From the NCBI RefSeq assembly GCF_044324785.1, contig NZ_CP172127.1: a stretch of 64,000 nt of DNA. One strand, given 5' to 3'. Position 1 is the first letter of the stretch. Each line of letters opens with the position of its first letter. The notes beneath the pieces were generated by a model. The model searched no databases. It was given only the letters and a program-made list of their open reading frames with translations, and was not told the origin of the DNA. Positions 6,221 through 60,705 of the stretch are shown one piece after another. This DNA is from Escherichia coli (GTDB lineage Bacteria; Pseudomonadota; Gammaproteobacteria; Enterobacterales; Enterobacteriaceae). Made by a program: the position numbers and the translations under genes.

Positions 6221-6312
6221 ATTGACTTAGAAAAAGCCCGGGGCTATAGTTTCCGCGCAGCCGCAAAATCGGTTGCCGGGATTGGCGTCCCGGATATCTA
6301 AGTGACGCATAG

Positions 6313-6331
6313 CCGCGTTAGCGGTTTTTTT
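6313..6331 (+). terminator. putative intrinsic terminator
   Basis: ccgcgttagcgg hairpin followed by a T7 run. Confidence 0.45.
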
Positions 6332-6444
6332 ATGTGTTAGGCACGGCCACATTCGCATTATGGTGGGCTGTGTGGGGGCTTCTGCGGAAGCGCCGGGTTC
6401 ACTTAGCCGGTTACGCCAACCCTGCACAGTTCACCACCAGATGA

Positions 6445-10898: not shown

Positions 10899-11504
10899 TT
10901 ACTTGCGTTTAAAAAGGTATTTTGTCACGACCAGCACGAGGCCGAATACCTCTGTCAAAGTACCGCCCATGTACAACTGGAGCGTTAAGTCTTTAAATAC
11001 AAGCCATTCAGCACCAGTGGCAAAAAATACACCATTCATTATCAAAAGCTGGCAAGCAAGGATAATAAGGAACCATTTGCCATAGCGTTTTTTTAGATCG
11101 ATTTCAGCTTCAAAATCTTTGTTGTTGAGTTGTTTGCGCTCATGCTCAGTATCAAGTGAATTCACCTGTTTCACAGATGTGAACTCGGTCAAGATTTTAC
11201 TCTCAGTACGGGTGACTTGTTGAGAGGGGGTAGGAATTGGAATTCTTTTGATTGACGCAGCTACAGCCATTTTGCGAGCTTCGGCAGCTCTTTTTCTGGC
11301 TATTCCGTGAATACGGGCAGACGGTTTTTTTGGAGCATGCGAAACCTTTGTCTGAGGTGAAGTTTCGTCAGGAGACTGAACCGGAGTTTCATCCTCCTCC
11401 GGCTCAACCTCTTCTGCTAACTGACGGTGTAGGTTGAGGGAATCCTTCAGTCGGCGTGCAACTTCCTGTTTGAAACGGCTGTTAAAATCGTCATCCGATG
11501 GCAT
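10899..11504 (-). CDS. membrane-anchored protein (charged N-terminal region, two C-terminal TM helices), partner of ImmA-like peptidase
   Basis: start 9 nt after peptidase stop, RBS inside peptidase 3' end; hydrophobic segments WFLIILACQLLIMNGVFFATGA and LVLVVTKYLF. Confidence 0.55.
   Translation of the reverse strand: MPSDDDFNSRFKQEVARRLKDSLNLHRQLAEEVEPEEDETPVQSPDETSPQTKVSHAPKKPSARIHGIARKRAAEARKMAVAASIKRIPIPTPSQQVTRTESKILTEFTSVKQVNSLDTEHERKQLNNKDFEAEIDLKKRYGKWFLIILACQLLIMNGVFFATGAEWLVFKDLTLQLYMGGTLTEVFGLVLVVTKYLFKRK
10901..10978. repeat. direct repeat copy B (~78 bp), coding for the C-terminus of 10899..11504
   Basis: pairs with 7301..7377. Confidence 0.8.
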
Positions 11505-11513
11505 TCTAAAGCG

Positions 11514-12002
11514 TTACCCCAACCTCAAGTTCTTTAAACGATAAGTCATCGCATCGTCAGATACGCCAAAATGATGCGCCATTATATAACTTGGTTGGCC
11601 GTCAGCGTGCAGTTTTCTGACCTCATCTACCGGCATCAGAAGTTCTGCTGCGAACTTGTTCGCAAAAATTTCATCAGGATGCGTTCCGGCGCTTGCGGTT
11701 TCGCCACGTAAATCAACGTACTCATATTCATCGCTATGCGATGCTTGCCGGGCGATGTAATGCCCCAACTCATGCCCACATGAAAAACGTTGACGAACTT
11801 TGTTGTCATCACTGTTTAGAAAGATCGCTGGATCTTGATCTTTTTGTTTAATCAGTGCGCCAGAAACTTTCCCAGGAAGATCGGTAATAAAAACATCTAA
11901 TCCCATGTCGTGAGCAATTTTCGCTGGATCAACAGGGAAACCACGCCCGCACCAGAACGTGTCCAGCACTCGCCGGGCGTGCTCTCTTGGGTTGGTAGCC
12001 AT
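11514..12002 (-). CDS. ImmA/IrrE-family zinc metallopeptidase (DUF955)
   Basis: HELGHY zinc-binding motif and downstream EIFANKFAAELLMP segment. Confidence 0.7.
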   Translation of the reverse strand: MATNPREHARRVLDTFWCGRGFPVDPAKIAHDMGLDVFITDLPGKVSGALIKQKDQDPAIFLNSDDNKVRQRFSCGHELGHYIARQASHSDEYEYVDLRGETASAGTHPDEIFANKFAAELLMPVDEVRKLHADGQPSYIMAHHFGVSDDAMTYRLKNLRLG

Positions 12003-12075
12003 AGCTCCTCCAGTTACTGCATTACGATTATTGGTCGAAATATAGACAACATGTTCCGTACCACATTCCTGTAAA

Positions 12076-12094
12076 AGTGCAAATTCTGCACTTC
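12076..12094. promoter_or_regulatory. palindromic operator-like site upstream of the peptidase operon
   Basis: aagtgca-aattc-tgcactt, perfect 7-bp arms, about 75-90 bp upstream of the peptidase start. Confidence 0.4.
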
Positions 12095-12435
12095 TGGTAC
12101 GATATTAACTGTTAGTAGTAAAGTCTTCCAGATAAATCACTTTAAAATCGTGTGAATTGCTTGCTTTTTACGCTGCATTGTGGATGGCTCAATGTTTCCA
12201 GTAAAAACATACATGATAATCATGACATTAGTGGTTTTTTAGGCGTCCATCTGTTTCTTAAAAAAATGGATGCCACAAGCGCCCGGATGAGAACAGGAAG
12301 GGAAGGCTATTACATGTGTGATTTATTACATCTGTAAAAAAATACAGATCTAACCTGATCTTTTCATTGAAGTTTTTCTTGGTCCTGGATAGGATCTGGA
12401 GGTTGCGAAGATTTTAGAGTCGCATCAAAGGGAAA

Positions 12436-12461
12436 GCCCTGACAGCGCCAACTGTCAGGGC
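12436..12461. other. perfect 10-bp stem hairpin (gccctgacag / ctgtcagggc) in a 567-bp non-coding stretch
   Basis: inverted repeat with 6-nt loop; T-rich flank on minus strand. Confidence 0.5.
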
Positions 12462-12569
12462 CATACAAAAACATCGGTTAATGCTTTCGTTGAGATCTCG
12501 GTTTGGGAGATTACCTCAACCGGGATCCCGTGTAAAGCATTCATTGCCGAAAATGATATAGGTCAATGA

Positions 12570-12848
12570 ATGAAACACATCTGTAAAAAGTCACATCGTC
12601 ACGACAGTATGTTTGATGTTCTTTCCGCAAATCAGGGGAACGTTGGGCGGCACAAATGTTGTGGATGTGCCTATGATAAAGGTATGTGGCACGCATTAAT
12701 TGGCGTTCCACGTGCGGTTGATGACTCTGTTTTAGGTGATTTGCCCGAAAGCCAGGCCGGGCATGTACGTCATAAAGATGCTTTTGAAGCATATAACATG
12801 GGATATGACCATGGGATGCATAAAAAAGCCTACGGCATGGCCTCATAA
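12570..12848 (+). CDS. hypothetical Cys/His-containing protein (92 aa)
   Basis: ORF followed by a clear intrinsic terminator; antisense ORF 12541..12936 judged spurious. Confidence 0.45.
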   Translation: MKHICKKSHRHDSMFDVLSANQGNVGRHKCCGCAYDKGMWHALIGVPRAVDDSVLGDLPESQAGHVRHKDAFEAYNMGYDHGMHKKAYGMAS

Positions 12849-12868
12849 CCAGGTGTAACTTATTAACT

Positions 12869-12896
12869 AACCCGCTTCGGCGGGTTTTCTTTTTTA
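12869..12896 (+). terminator. intrinsic terminator
   Basis: aacccgcttcggcgggtt hairpin followed by ttcttttttat. Confidence 0.7.
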
Positions 12897-12966
12897 TAGA
12901 ACCCTGCGATGTGAAAACGAATAATAAATTGTGCAAATAGTGCAGTTTTTATTATTCGAGGTAATT

Positions 12967-13608
12967 ATGAAAACCTTCTATGAGGGCTGGCCTGAAACTT
13001 TCGTTAGCCGGTTAGATATGTTACGGGCGTTGGATGATCGCGGTTCGACCCGGAGGCTCTATCTTGAGCGGACCGGAGCAATATTTGGCGCTCTGGCAGA
13101 AGAGATACGTACAGCCGTTGCCGGGCATCCTGAAACTGACGCGAGTGAACTTGATATCGGGCCGCTATATCGCTATTACAAACGTGGAGAAAAGGGGGAT
13201 CCGCTGGCTGACTTACTTATTAAATTGGCTCCACCAACCTGTGAACGGGTTCGTATATCTCCTGAAGTGTACACAATCCCGTATCTGTTTTTTGCACTGT
13301 TGATAGCGCAAGGCGCTGACAACGATGCCCGAGATTTTTTCAATATGATGATGCGACCGTTGATCATCGCCTACCGCTTCAAACAACTGGCGCGCTACCT
13401 TGGCACGAAGGGCGGAGGACGACCACAGCACAGATTAAAAAGTGAAGCCATTGAACTGGCTGATCGTTTTTTTACTGAAAACCCGACTGCGCCATTATCG
13501 CGTGGTGTGCAATACATATCCGGTATTTTTGTGGCGAAATACTCCGATCCACCTGCAGCCTCGACGATTAGAAAATGGTTAATTTCAATTTACAGGAGTG
13601 ATAAATAA
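12967..13608 (+). CDS. hypothetical protein (about 213 aa from internal ATG with GAGGT RBS)
   Basis: ORF 12931..13608; better start at MKTFYEGW; no recognisable domain. Confidence 0.45.
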   Translation: MKTFYEGWPETFVSRLDMLRALDDRGSTRRLYLERTGAIFGALAEEIRTAVAGHPETDASELDIGPLYRYYKRGEKGDPLADLLIKLAPPTCERVRISPEVYTIPYLFFALLIAQGADNDARDFFNMMMRPLIIAYRFKQLARYLGTKGGGRPQHRLKSEAIELADRFFTENPTAPLSRGVQYISGIFVAKYSDPPAASTIRKWLISIYRSDK

Positions 13609-15671: not shown

Positions 15672-15935
15672 GAATCAGGAAAAATCATGTCTGAACCTCT
15701 AACCGCTGGCGTTGCTGCTGGCTCGGCGGGGGTGACGTTTGCTGCGTTATTTCCTGAGGCAACACCTGCAGTGATGATCTGTGCGCTGGCAGGCGCAGCT
15801 CTCTATGTGTTGTCGTCCGGGCAGCATCGATTCTGGAAGCAGGTTAGACTGGCCCCCTGAATCTCCAGACAACCAATATCACTTAAATAAGTGATAGTCT
15901 TAATACTAGTTTTTAGACTAGTCATTGGAGAGCAG

Positions 15936-16301
15936 ATGATTGATGTCTTAGGACCGGAGAAACGCAGACGGCGTACTACACAGGAAAAGATCGCTATTGT
16001 TCAGCAGAGTTTTGAACCGGGAATGACGGTCTCCCTTGTTGCCCGGCAACACGGTGTGGCAGCCAGCCAGTTATTTCTCTGGCGCAAGCAATACCAGGAG
16101 GGAAGTCTTACTGCTGTGGCCGCAGGAGAGCAGGTCGTTCCTGCCTCTGAACTTGCTGCTGCCATGAAGCAGATTAAAGAACTCCAGCGCCTGCTCGGCA
16201 AAAAAACGATGGAAAATGAACTCCTTAAAGAAGCCGTTGAATACGGGCGTGCAAAAAAGTGGATAGCGCACGCGCCCTTATTGCCCGGGGATGGGGAGTA
16301 A
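15936..16301 (+). CDS. insC: IS2 transposase OrfA (InsC)
   Basis: [53 protein letters not shown]. Confidence 0.9.
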
Positions 16302-17164
16302 GCTTAGTCAGCCGTTGTCTCCGGGTGTCGCGTGCGCAGTTGCACGTAATTCTCAGACGAACCGATGACTGGAAAGATGGTCGCCGCAGCCGTCACTCAG
16401 ATGATACGGATGTGCTTCTCCGTATACACCATGTTATCGGAGAGCTGCCCACGTATGGTTATCGTCGGGTATGGGCGCTGCTTCGCAGACAGGCCGAACT
16501 TGATGGTATGCCTGCGATCAATGCCAAACGTGTTTACCGGATCATGCGCCAGAATGCGCTGTTGCTTGAGCGAAAAACCGCTGTACCGCCATCGAAACGG
16601 GCACATACTGGCAAAGTGGCCGTGAAAGAAAGCAATCAACGATGGTGCTCTGACGGGTTCGAGTTCCGCTGTGATAACGGAGAAAAACTGCGAGTCACGT
16701 TCGCGCTGGACTGCTGTGACCGTGAGGCACTGCACTGGGCAGTCACTACGGGCGGCTTCGACAGTGAAACAGTACAGGACGTAATGCTGGGAGCGGTGGA
16801 ACGCCGCTTCGGCAACGAGCTTCCGGCGTCTCCAGTAGAGTGGCTGACGGATAATGGTTCATGCTACCGGGCTAATGAAACACGGCAGTTTGCCCGGATG
16901 TTGGGGCTTGAACCGAAGAACACGGCGGTGCGGAGTCCGGAGAGTAACGGCATAGCAGAGAGCTTCGTGAAAACGATAAAGCGTGACTACATCAGTATCA
17001 TGCCTAAACCAGACGGGTTAACGGCAGCAAAGAACCTTGCAGAGGCGTTCGAGCATTATAACGAATGGCATCCGCATAGTGCACTGGGTTATCGCTCGCC
17101 ACGGGAATATCTGCGGCAGCAGGCCAGTAATGGGTTAAGTGATAACAGGTGTCTGGAAATATAG
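16259..17164 (+). CDS. insD: IS2 transposase OrfB (InsD)
   Basis: 301-aa DDE transposase overlapping insC in -1 frame. Confidence 0.9.
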
Positions 17165-51881: not shown

Positions 51882-52447
51882 TATGTATTCCCTTGTGATT
51901 ATAATCTTCATGAATATATCAATAAGTGCCGTTATCCAAAAAAAAGCACATTTGGATACTATTCTATGAAGTTCATTTTATTTTAAGGATTACATGTAAC
52001 AAATGTATTTAAAAGATTTCAAAATGTTTCTAATCTATTTAATATAATTCAGAATTATGAATTCTAGATATAAATATTCATGATAATTATGAATATATAT
52101 CAATATGTTATGAGTTGATTGGAAAGATAGGAAGTATCAATGATTGCGGCGCTAAACGGCTGATGTGATCACGCGCACATTAATGAAGGCATAAAAAAAA
52201 GCCGGCATCATGCCGGCCCAAAAAATATAAACAAGACGATAAAAGGCTAATAACGGGGTTATCATGACACAGAAATCAAAAAAGGTATAATTGAATTCGC
52301 TGCTAATATATTGTTTAGGTGAATTAATAAAACCATTACCATAGATAATAATAAATCTTCATTGCTGTTTTTCCGGTAATTATTGCCGTTGCGCAAAAAT
52401 TATCTATTTGTTCAAAAAATGATTGAGTCTTGACTGGCTCATCCAAT

Positions 52448-60618: not shown

Positions 60619-60705
60619 AACACATCAGATTTCCTGGTGTAACGAATTTTTTAAGTGCTTCTTGCTTAAGCAAGTTTCATCCCGACCCCCTCAGGGTCGG
60701 GATTT
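60619..60705 (+). ncRNA. dsrA: small regulatory RNA DsrA
   Basis: aacacatcagatttcctggtgtaacgaattttttaagtgcttcttgcttaagcaagtttcatcccgaccccctcagggtcgggattt matches DsrA including its terminator hairpin. Confidence 0.9.

Follow-up and report, generated by a model that had tools for sequence, protein, structure and literature searches.

We analysed a region of 567 bp (12003-12569) in a 64,000-nucleotide stretch of Escherichia coli DNA (the window; RefSeq assembly GCF_044324785.1, contig NZ_CP172127.1), which is flanked by a minus-strand ImmA/IrrE peptidase gene (11514-12002) and a plus-strand open reading frame (ORF) of 92 amino acids (aa; 12570-12848). Its right part, 12265-12569, probably serves a mobile prophage cassette as its control region, in which an antisense RNA and a structured mRNA leader, predicted to arise from two facing promoters, would control the 92-aa gene. 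We infer both transcripts, as well as the sign and the route of the regulation, from the sequence.

The predicted antisense RNA and the leader opposite it

The first-pass annotation of this region, made from the letters alone, had reported a perfect 10-bp stem with a 6-nt loop at 12436-12461. An inverted repeat search confirms it (GCCCTGACAG / CGCCAA / CTGTCAGGGC), together with the T-rich flank described for the minus strand: there the stem, which we name H2, reaches 12 pairs (12462-12435) and is followed by TTCCCTTTGA. According to our own arithmetic a perfect 10-bp stem with a loop of 3-8 nt is expected by chance ~0.003 times per 567 bp and ~0.4 times per 64-kb window, so that the significance of H2 rests on its conservation and not on its perfection. 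Conservation in related loci, whose absence (along with that of a transcript) had been named beforehand as refuting, is indeed found: ~35 homologues of distinct sequence preserve the stem, 10 of its 12 pairs show compensatory changes, and 96.8% of the cells are paired. A terminator scan reports only two terminator-like sites in 11400-13200, one of which is H2, and H2 qualifies as an intrinsic terminator on the minus strand only (on the plus strand its 3' side reads CAUACAAAAACA, which is not a U-tract). Most likely, H2 is the Rho-independent terminator of a predicted antisense RNA of ~75 nt. The elements predicted for the control region are the following (positions in the window; the covariance model R1 is described below):

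12367-12372 and 12390-12395, plus strand: predicted sigma-70 promoter P+ (-35 TTGAAG, 17-nt spacer, -10 TAGGAT), predicted start at ~12401
12401-12569, plus strand: structured 5' leader of the 92-aa gene, ~168 nt (fold and per-homologue stability)
12404-12424, plus strand: hairpin H1 (TGCGA...TCGCA), with a hairpin at this position in 22/22 homologues though the sequences differ
12427-12502, minus strand: predicted antisense small RNA (sRNA) of ~75 nt (76 nt, from 12502 to 12427; model R1, covariation and fold)
12435-12462, minus strand: hairpin H2, 12 pairs (7 G-C, two G·U) with a 4-nt loop, then the tail UUCCCUUU
12466-12489, minus strand: hairpin H3, internal to the sRNA, 5 of 7 pairs changed on both sides
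12480-12487 with 12534-12541, plus strand: long-range helix P3 (AAUGCUUU with AAAGCAUU), which encloses the P4 stem(s) (RNAalifold)
12536-12531 and 12513-12508, minus strand: predicted sigma-70 promoter P- (-35 TTTACA, 17-nt spacer, -10 TAATCT), predicted start at ~12502
12538-12572, plus strand: hairpin H5, which sequesters the Shine-Dalgarno (SD) sequence (AGG, 12560-12562) and the start codon (12570-12572; per-homologue folds)

A protein-alignment search of genome and viral collections yielded 145 loci. For ~35 of these, identity to the window over the upstream 220-245 nt is 69-77%, and the 245-nt region (70-77%) is as conserved as the coding sequence; they originate from Salmonella, Pantoea, Citrobacter, Yersinia, Rahnella and Escherichia whittamii and can be aligned throughout. 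Read along the plus strand, the alignment runs from an A-tract region (often after the terminator of the upstream gene) through TTGAnG-17-TAnnAT, a variable H1 and an invariant AAGGGAAAG to H2, whose stem is free in its sequence and whose loop differs in length. Downstream of H2 follow AAAAACA ... AATGTTTT, an invariant TTGAGATCTC, GAGATTAnCTCAA, an invariant TGTAAAG and finally the hairpin that pairs with the SD.

We built a covariance model, R1, on seven Pantoea-type seed sequences to represent the minus strand (5' tail, H3, H2 and tail). The model matches 53 loci. All of its matches lie 60-150 nt upstream of the gene and antisense to it, apart from a plus-strand match to the bare H2 hairpin in locus L095. 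Within the window there is a single match (12424-12508, minus strand, 49.8 bits, E ≈ 8e-9), and divergent lineages, from Gilliamella and other viral contigs, are also matched at 24-30 bits. Overall, conservation of ~245 nt before the gene extends to some 50 prophage loci (Salmonella P22-like, Pantoea, Citrobacter, Yersinia, Rahnella, Gilliamella). Covariation was tested on the R1-fitted alignment of 35 distinct sequences against 500 shuffles. Over H2 and H3 together, 96.2% of the pair cells are standard (73.6% in the shuffles) and double-sided changes occur at 15 of the 19 pairs (10/12 for H2, 5/7 for H3), while the number of compensatory cells is 129 against 34 ± 5 in the shuffles, a value reached in 0 of 500. 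The covariation score is 0.582 and stays at or below 0.127 after sliding the 3' partners, and RNAalifold returns the same two helices. Covariance modelling had been proposed at the outset as a check on the hairpin, and both R1 and the covariation support an RNA structure on the minus strand.

The strand is further indicated by the G·U pairs. Read as minus-strand RNA, the 636 pair cells of H2 and H3 consist of 541 Watson-Crick pairs, 71 G·U and 1 A·C, whereas read as plus-strand RNA the pairing falls to 85.2%. An asymmetry of 71:1 between G·U and A·C cannot be produced by alignment fitting. In addition, we folded each segment of ~20 unique homologues on both strands, with the following outcome (number of homologues in which each strand is the more stable; mean energies in kcal/mol):

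H1: plus 16/19, minus 3/19; mean -8.2 (plus) and -5.5 (minus)
P3/P4: plus 15/17, minus 2/17; mean -21.4 (plus) and -17.5 (minus)
H5: plus 16/19, minus 3/19; mean -11.9 (plus) and -8.0 (minus)
H2: plus 4/21, minus 17/21; mean -18.2 (plus) and -20.8 (minus)
H3: plus 0/18, minus 18/18; mean -3.4 (plus) and -6.3 (minus)

These differences in stability are caused by G·U pairs; for instance, the C·A mismatches that H2 shows on the plus strand in loci L119, L128, L093, L102 and L010 are G·U pairs on the minus strand. Given that the preferred strand alternates within one stretch of 170 nt, which serves as an internal control, two RNAs appear to be under selection: a leader on the plus strand and an RNA over H3 and H2 on the minus strand.

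The predicted sRNA folds at -31.6 kcal/mol (z = -5.96) into a 12-nt free 5' tail, H3 (11 pairs), H2 (12 pairs) and the tail given above. On the minus strand a stretch of 161 nt gives z = -6.64, while the plus strand (12400-12600, -63.6 kcal/mol) gives -4.35. The 5' tail carries the palindromic GAGAUCUC. A palindrome is always present in this tail (12492-12499 in the window) even as both of its halves change between lineages (GAGATCTC, CGAGATCTCG, GTGATCAC or GAGCTC). Its role may be that of an operator, bound by a dimeric protein at the sRNA start, or that of a site for RNA pairing.

Both predicted promoters are conserved in geometry. Upstream of the R1 match, CTTTACA (in Gilliamella TTTACT) and TAnnnT (TAATCT, TAGTCT, TACTCT, TAGACT, TACGAT or TAGAAT) are spaced by exactly 17 nt in all lineages, with a spacer that diverges completely (CGGGATCCCGGTTGAGG in the window versus TAAAAAGAAAACGAATA in Gilliamella). 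P- is located ~40 nt upstream of H3, and from its conservation we predict an antisense RNA with its own reverse promoter inside the target unit. For P+, TTGAnn-16/17-TAnnAT occupies the corresponding position in every lineage, Gilliamella and other divergent ones among them. The two promoters would be convergent and ~100 bp apart; the earlier suggestion of divergent promoters is not borne out, as they face each other. The accompanying suggestion of a small RNA or regulatory structure fares better, being supported comparatively by the conserved minus-strand promoter, the covariation and the minus-strand G·U asymmetry.

On the plus strand, P3 (AAUGUUUU with AAAGCRUU) is predicted by RNAalifold on a MAFFT alignment that was not fitted to any structure. 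Its cells are paired for 99.4%, 32 of them being G·U cells that would mismatch on the minus strand, and two pairs have double changes (in the Yersinia/Rahnella lineage). The inner pairing, P4, has two alternatives (TTGAG/CTCAA or GATCTCG/CGAGATC), neither of which is universal. An equivalent of H5 covers the SD in 22/22 homologues at -8 to -15 kcal/mol. As the MAFFT alignments are structurally inconsistent for H1 and H5, the plus-strand evidence consists of folds per sequence and not of a covariance model.

From these elements a route of regulation can be proposed. Transcription from P+ would make the mRNA of the 92-aa gene with its leader of ~168 nt, in which H1, P3/P4 and H5 form and H5 buries the SD and the AUG. 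P- would make the antisense RNA of ~75 nt (12502 to ~12427), perfectly complementary to leader nucleotides 27-101, and pairing would probably be nucleated between the complementary H2 loops or via the 5' tail of the antisense RNA. P3 has its 5' arm within the sRNA target, and its 3' arm overlaps the 5' arm of H5, so that pairing of the sRNA should disrupt P3 and move the leader towards the full H5. Expression of the 92-aa protein would then be lowered because the hairpin over the ribosome binding site (RBS) is left in place or strengthened, through cleavage of the duplex and possibly through collision of convergent polymerases. In a partition-function model in which the sRNA target is blocked, RBS accessibility falls in 22 homologues against 4 (mean change -0.07), and on this model repression is the likely sign of the regulation.

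With respect to coding potential, the longest ORF in 12003-12569 (all ORFs of at least 20 aa were listed) has 61 aa and a GTG start (12152-12337). It straddles the mosaic junction at 12264 discussed below and therefore cannot be a conserved gene. No ORF of at least 12 codons is common to more than 14 of 32 homologues, and the lengths vary. The small-ORF scan and the comparison of the 32 homologues thus agree with the first-pass annotation that there is no convincing ORF, and show no conserved peptide. In the Salmonella phage BIS08P22 an ORF of 78 aa is annotated here (UWV16653.1, locus L003 3923-4159), which overlaps the RNA element at its promoter, H1 and H2; neither Pfam nor PHROG yields a match, conservation as an ORF is lacking, and this hypothetical protein is probably a spurious annotation.

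Known RNA families give no match either. Nothing in 11900-13000 reaches the gathering threshold in Rfam 15, the best match below threshold being that of the bare hairpin to sar (19.6 bits, where the gathering score is 43; E = 0.56). The STnc6030 (BTP1) RNA was considered as the same element and rejected, having a length of 786 nt and being antisense to the tailspike gene. No description of the cassette was found in the literature on antisense control of DpnII-type systems, prophage morons and type I toxin-antitoxin (TA) modules. Judged by these searches the predicted antisense RNA/leader family is new, as no described family is matched, although its kind (a cis-antisense RNA with a structured leader) is already known.

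The exchangeable cassette, its protein and the left half of the region

The window consists of an E. coli lambdoid prophage plus chromosomal flank (Rfam places DsrA at 60619 and RseX at 52194), and the genes around the region match the replication, DUF1367, DUF1364, Q and lysis genes of related prophages. The features outside the control region proper are as follows:

12003-12264, minus strand: upstream region of the peptidase operon (promoter and 5' untranslated region, UTR), inherited together with the peptidase gene (95-99% identity, 436 E. coli genomes)
12075-12093, both strands: perfect palindrome AAGTGCA-AATTC-TGCACTT, candidate operator of the peptidase operon
12265-12897, plus strand: exchangeable moron cassette (control region, 92-aa gene, terminator), in 20-21 of 5426 genomes
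12306-12337, plus strand: type I-E CRISPR (clustered regularly interspaced short palindromic repeats) protospacer, identical to a spacer of strain AF39, with an AAG protospacer adjacent motif (PAM) at 12303-12305
12570-12848, plus strand: gene of the 92-aa Cys/His-rich protein, presumed to be the regulated gene (phrog_3941, E = 2.6e-42, profile positions 1-85)
12869-12897, plus strand: intrinsic terminator of the cassette mRNA, AACCCGCTTCGGCGGGTT then TTCTTTTTTA (terminator scan)

We compared 11900-12700 with 5426 complete E. coli genomes using megablast. Matches were obtained in 436 genomes; the whole query is covered in 20, and in the remaining 416 the match stops at ~12264. Sequence 12250-12580 is present in only 20-21 of the 5426 genomes, always with the 92-aa gene. 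Given this difference in the number of genomes sharing each half, 12003-12264 goes with the peptidase operon and 12265-~12897 behaves as an exchangeable cassette. By their distribution, then, the 567 bp are two unrelated modules joined at ~12264 and not one intergenic unit, as the region had been taken to be at first. The link that had been drawn between the hairpin and the peptidase operon or 'island' regulation likewise does not hold, since H2 sits in the separate cassette with the 92-aa gene.

The majority variant in E. coli (L002) has the same flanks with other cargo between them, namely a minus-strand gene of 77 aa. Its left flank retains ...AAAATACAGGTCTAACCTGATCTTATCGTTGAGA, the sequence as far as the -35 of P+, and its right flank restarts before aaacgaataataaattgtgcaaatagtgcag. 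In the comparison of L002 5340-5400 with window 12333-12378 the two are shared as far as the -35 of the cassette promoter and continue into unrelated cargo, and the end of identity at the -35 points to a cassette-swap recombination junction inside the promoter. A distant blastn search of phage genomes shows that window 12325-12801 is 68.6% identical to BIS08P22 (Lederbergvirus), where the sequence lies directly downstream of cI. Other prophages, too, carry the cassette after cI. The homology begins 245 nt upstream of the start codon, and the pairwise alignment contains three compensatory changes in H2 (T-A to A-T, C-G to A-T and A-T to G-C). The iap-side type I-E CRISPR array of E. coli AF39 (NZ_OZ547136) contains a spacer of 32 nt that matches 12306-12337 at 100% identity; together with the canonical AAG PAM this indicates that E. 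coli has acquired immunity against this cassette.

The 92-aa protein is hydrophilic and has no hydrophobic segment; members of the family in prophages have 81-92 aa, with C5, H9, GRHKCxGC and SQAGxVRHKDAFEAY as invariant residues. Profile searches gave no match in Pfam, NCBIfam, PADLOC or the PDB, and the AlphaFold model is of good quality (pLDDT 84.5). Outside the RNA-bearing prophage lineages (Enterobacterales, Gilliamella), phrog_3941 homologues are found inside DpnII-type GATC restriction-modification (R-M) cassettes in 44 loci, next to a DpnII endonuclease (PF04556), a D12-class Dam-like methyltransferase (PF02086) and an N6_N4 methyltransferase (PF01555); the RNA element was found in 0 of these 44. 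The R-M cassettes (loci L018-L085, e.g. L019 2094-4128 and L018 470-4142) come from Bacteroidota, Bacillota, spirochaetes, Neisseria and others, and their gene order varies. An exhaustive profile search returned 275 clusters at 50% identity, mostly stand-alone proteins of 80-95 aa. In some members (P0068, P0079, P0103, P0086, P0107) the domain of ~80 aa is part of a larger protein, joined to DndB-like (DNA-sulfur modification-associated), WYL or HNH_2 domains. These contexts suggest that the phrog_3941 domain is a nucleic-acid-binding or sensing module of defence systems.

The same tetranucleotide, GATC (the Dam site), recurs in the control region, on both strands:

12357-12360: 7 nt upstream of the -35 of P+, kept in 31/33 homologues
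12393-12396: at the -10 of P+, kept in 14/33 homologues
12494-12497: at sRNA position +6, kept in 33/33 homologues
12524-12527: in the spacer of P-, kept in 23/33 homologues

Per 270 nt there are 3-5 sites, against 0.6-1.6 in shuffles (a 3- to 6-fold enrichment), and GATC sites flank P+ in divergent lineages too, even though the surrounding sequence differs. It might be argued that the cassette is a methylation-aware switch, in which a solitary protein of a Zn-binding family is placed under an antisense RNA and GATC-studded facing promoters; this is a speculative extension that we consider rather doubtful. If true, expression of the 92-aa protein would be gated by the Dam methylation state as well as by the sRNA, a new layer linking lysogeny, DNA methylation and restriction. 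Should the protein bind GATC DNA, it could be an orphan R-M controller or an anti-restriction factor, and the conserved palindrome at the sRNA start (GAGATCTC / GTGATCAC) is a candidate site for it.

Turning to the left half, the peptidase (11514-12002, minus strand) matches Peptidase_M78 (E = 1.4e-17), with capP as its best match in PADLOC (1.6e-25). The CapP-like operon (10899-12002, minus strand) has no adjacent helix-turn-helix/XRE partner gene; the partner in this operon is a 201-aa protein with a C-terminal hydrophobic region (phrog_5346). Conservation of 12003-12264 is restricted to near-identical prophages: upstream of ImmA homologues with 81-89% identity the DNA is unrelated. Judged from its position and inheritance, 12003-12264 is best read as holding the promoter and 5' UTR of the peptidase operon, plus a single palindrome that is a candidate operator. 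Such a palindrome near the peptidase promoter had been described before and does exist at 12075-12093; its role as an operator is unproven, and the motif is not significantly enriched in the window (allowing one mismatch, 4 matches against 2.7 expected). A related copy, GTGCAAATAGTGCAG, is located at 12931-12945, ahead of the phrog_5215 gene, which is the next conserved one. The insertion point of the cassette lies between the two copies, and L002 retains both. The second GTGCAAAT...TGCAG motif lies within an inverted repeat of ~11 bp (CGAATAATAAA ... TTTATTATTCG; window 12918-12960), directly upstream of the phrog_5215 gene (12967-13608), and may be an operator or a leader hairpin.

Two other modules of the prophage were observed. 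At 6244-6441 Rfam reports isrK (80.4 bits), C4 antisense RNA (74.5 bits) and its a1/b1 target (52.9 bits), upstream of an ORF of 230 aa; going by these matches, this is a second antisense-RNA control module of the same prophage. At 15891-17164, directly after the Q antiterminator gene, there are two overlapping ORFs whose translations look like OrfA and OrfB of an IS3-family (IS2-type) transposase. Since related prophages have holin genes at this position, the late/lysis operon appears to be interrupted here by an insertion sequence (IS) element.

Alternative explanations

Several observations weigh against the proposed antisense RNA and its facing promoters. The U-tract 3' of H2 is interrupted by CCC (TTCCCTTTGA; UUCCCUUU), which makes it a weak tail for a Rho-independent terminator. 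P- has TAATCT as its -10 in the window, which fits the consensus at only 3 of 6 positions, and a consensus scan with a threshold of 9 out of 12 reports 0 promoters in the region, P+ and P- both being below it, so that support for the promoters comes from conservation and not from scores. The alignment used for covariation was fitted to R1, which inflates the pairing figures, and the sequences are phylogenetically related, hence the shuffle counts are not probabilities. Furthermore, the invariant AAGGGAAAG beside H2 is more conserved than a U-tail needs and may have an extra role on the plus strand, and the modelled effect on RBS accessibility is small (-0.02 for the window's own leader).

That the hairpin acts without a functional antisense RNA, either as a mere insulating terminator or as part of a cis-regulatory leader on the plus strand (thermosensor, protein-binding or riboswitch-like), is in our view quite unlikely. 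P3, H1 and H5 are structures specific to the plus strand, H2 is able to form there too, and P+ and P- are predictions. Nonetheless, a plus-strand role for H2 and H3 is hard to reconcile with the 71 G·U against 1 A·C cells on the minus strand, with the destabilisation of both hairpins on the plus strand in many homologues (-12.7 versus -22.3 kcal/mol in L119, -13.6 versus -22.8 in L128) and with the lack of a U-tract after H2 on that strand (CAUACAAAAACA), while a passive terminator would not explain why a minus-strand promoter with a fixed 17-nt geometry is present near H3 in every lineage. The same G·U asymmetry is meaningless in duplex DNA, and a stem whose sequence is free to change while pairing is kept, with a loop of variable length, is typical of RNA helices and not of operators. 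An element acting as DNA (a protein-binding palindrome, a cruciform or a recombination site), or an unannotated small ORF such as the one in BIS08P22, is therefore very improbable, even though cassette junctions are nearby, the palindrome in the sRNA 5' region (GAGATCTC) and the GATC sites could bind a protein, and an ORF has been annotated across the element in that phage; any ORF is common to at most 14 of 32 homologues, and the one in BIS08P22 belongs to no Pfam or PHROG family.

A type I TA module is a special case of an antisense RNA acting on a structured leader: here the 92-aa protein would be toxic and the antisense RNA the antitoxin, and the module would stabilise the prophage or abort infection. 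The architecture is indeed like that of hok/sok and ldr/rdl (a short antisense RNA in a long structured leader, a sequestered SD and an own terminator), and the cassette is mobile and occupies accessory slots of prophages. However, nearly all type I toxins are hydrophobic, whereas the 92-aa protein is hydrophilic, rich in Cys and His and without a hydrophobic segment. Moreover, the family occurs without the RNA in the 44 DpnII-type R-M loci, or fused to DndB-like, WYL or HNH domains, which suggests a nucleic-acid-binding accessory protein. Because the protein lacks toxin features we do not class the cassette as a type I TA module and regard this explanation as unlikely; control of the 92-aa gene by an antisense RNA over its leader is the reading that we retain.

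Meaning and comparison with known systems

On this reading, an antisense-RNA/leader family that is absent from Rfam, with predicted ends and promoters, would be added to the short list of phage regulatory RNAs. Moron genes could then bring their own post-transcriptional control when they move between prophage slots, in this case from downstream of cI in P22-like phages to a nin-region slot in the present E. coli prophage. A family of small proteins (~275 clusters) is flagged as tied to GATC R-M and defence loci, and the tight control predicted for it in prophages hints that the amount of protein is important. For annotation, the 78-aa protein across the element in BIS08P22 is a probable correction.

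In its working the element would be like the cis-antisense RNAs of the Sok, OOP or sar type. The hok/sok system is known from parB of plasmid R1 and from chromosomal and prophage homologues such as hokW-sokW, where Sok RNA is directed against the structured hok leader. Shared features are an antisense RNA of ~65-75 nt with its own constitutive-type promoter inside the target leader (here predicted), a terminator hairpin preceded by a single-stranded 5' tail, long-range pairing and RBS sequestration in the target mRNA, and carriage on mobile elements including prophages. Differences concern the protein (hydrophilic, with 81-92 aa and Cys/His-rich here, a membrane toxin of ~50 aa for hok) and the RNA, as the predicted sRNA has two hairpins, there is no mok-like overlapping frame, and no similarity is seen in sequence or Rfam.

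Among phage RNAs, OOP of lambda is antisense to cII and sar of P22 is antisense to the RBS of ant, and sas of P22 is likewise a phage cis-antisense RNA. With these the element would share an RNA of ~70 nt that ends in a GC-rich terminator hairpin and overlaps a regulatory or accessory transcript near the immunity region (here, in the P22-like arrangement, a cassette directly downstream of the repressor gene). The site of pairing differs: sar covers the RBS and OOP a 3' end, whereas the predicted target here is the middle of a long 5' leader. In addition, the cassette is a mobile moron and not part of the core lysis-lysogeny circuit.

In IS10, with RNA-OUT and RNA-IN, the pIN promoter is sensitive to Dam; GATC sites at promoters, here predicted ones, are a shared feature. 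Facing promoters that yield an mRNA and a short antisense RNA are common to IS10 and to the antisense control of R-M systems (EcoRI, Eco29kI). Unlike in those systems, no transposase or restriction enzyme is regulated here, and the overlap of ~100 nt lies within the leader and leaves the RBS uncovered. Antisense RNA from reverse promoters is a known mode of control for R-M genes (reviewed in PMC12707154), and the protein family that would be controlled in the present cassette is itself associated with R-M.

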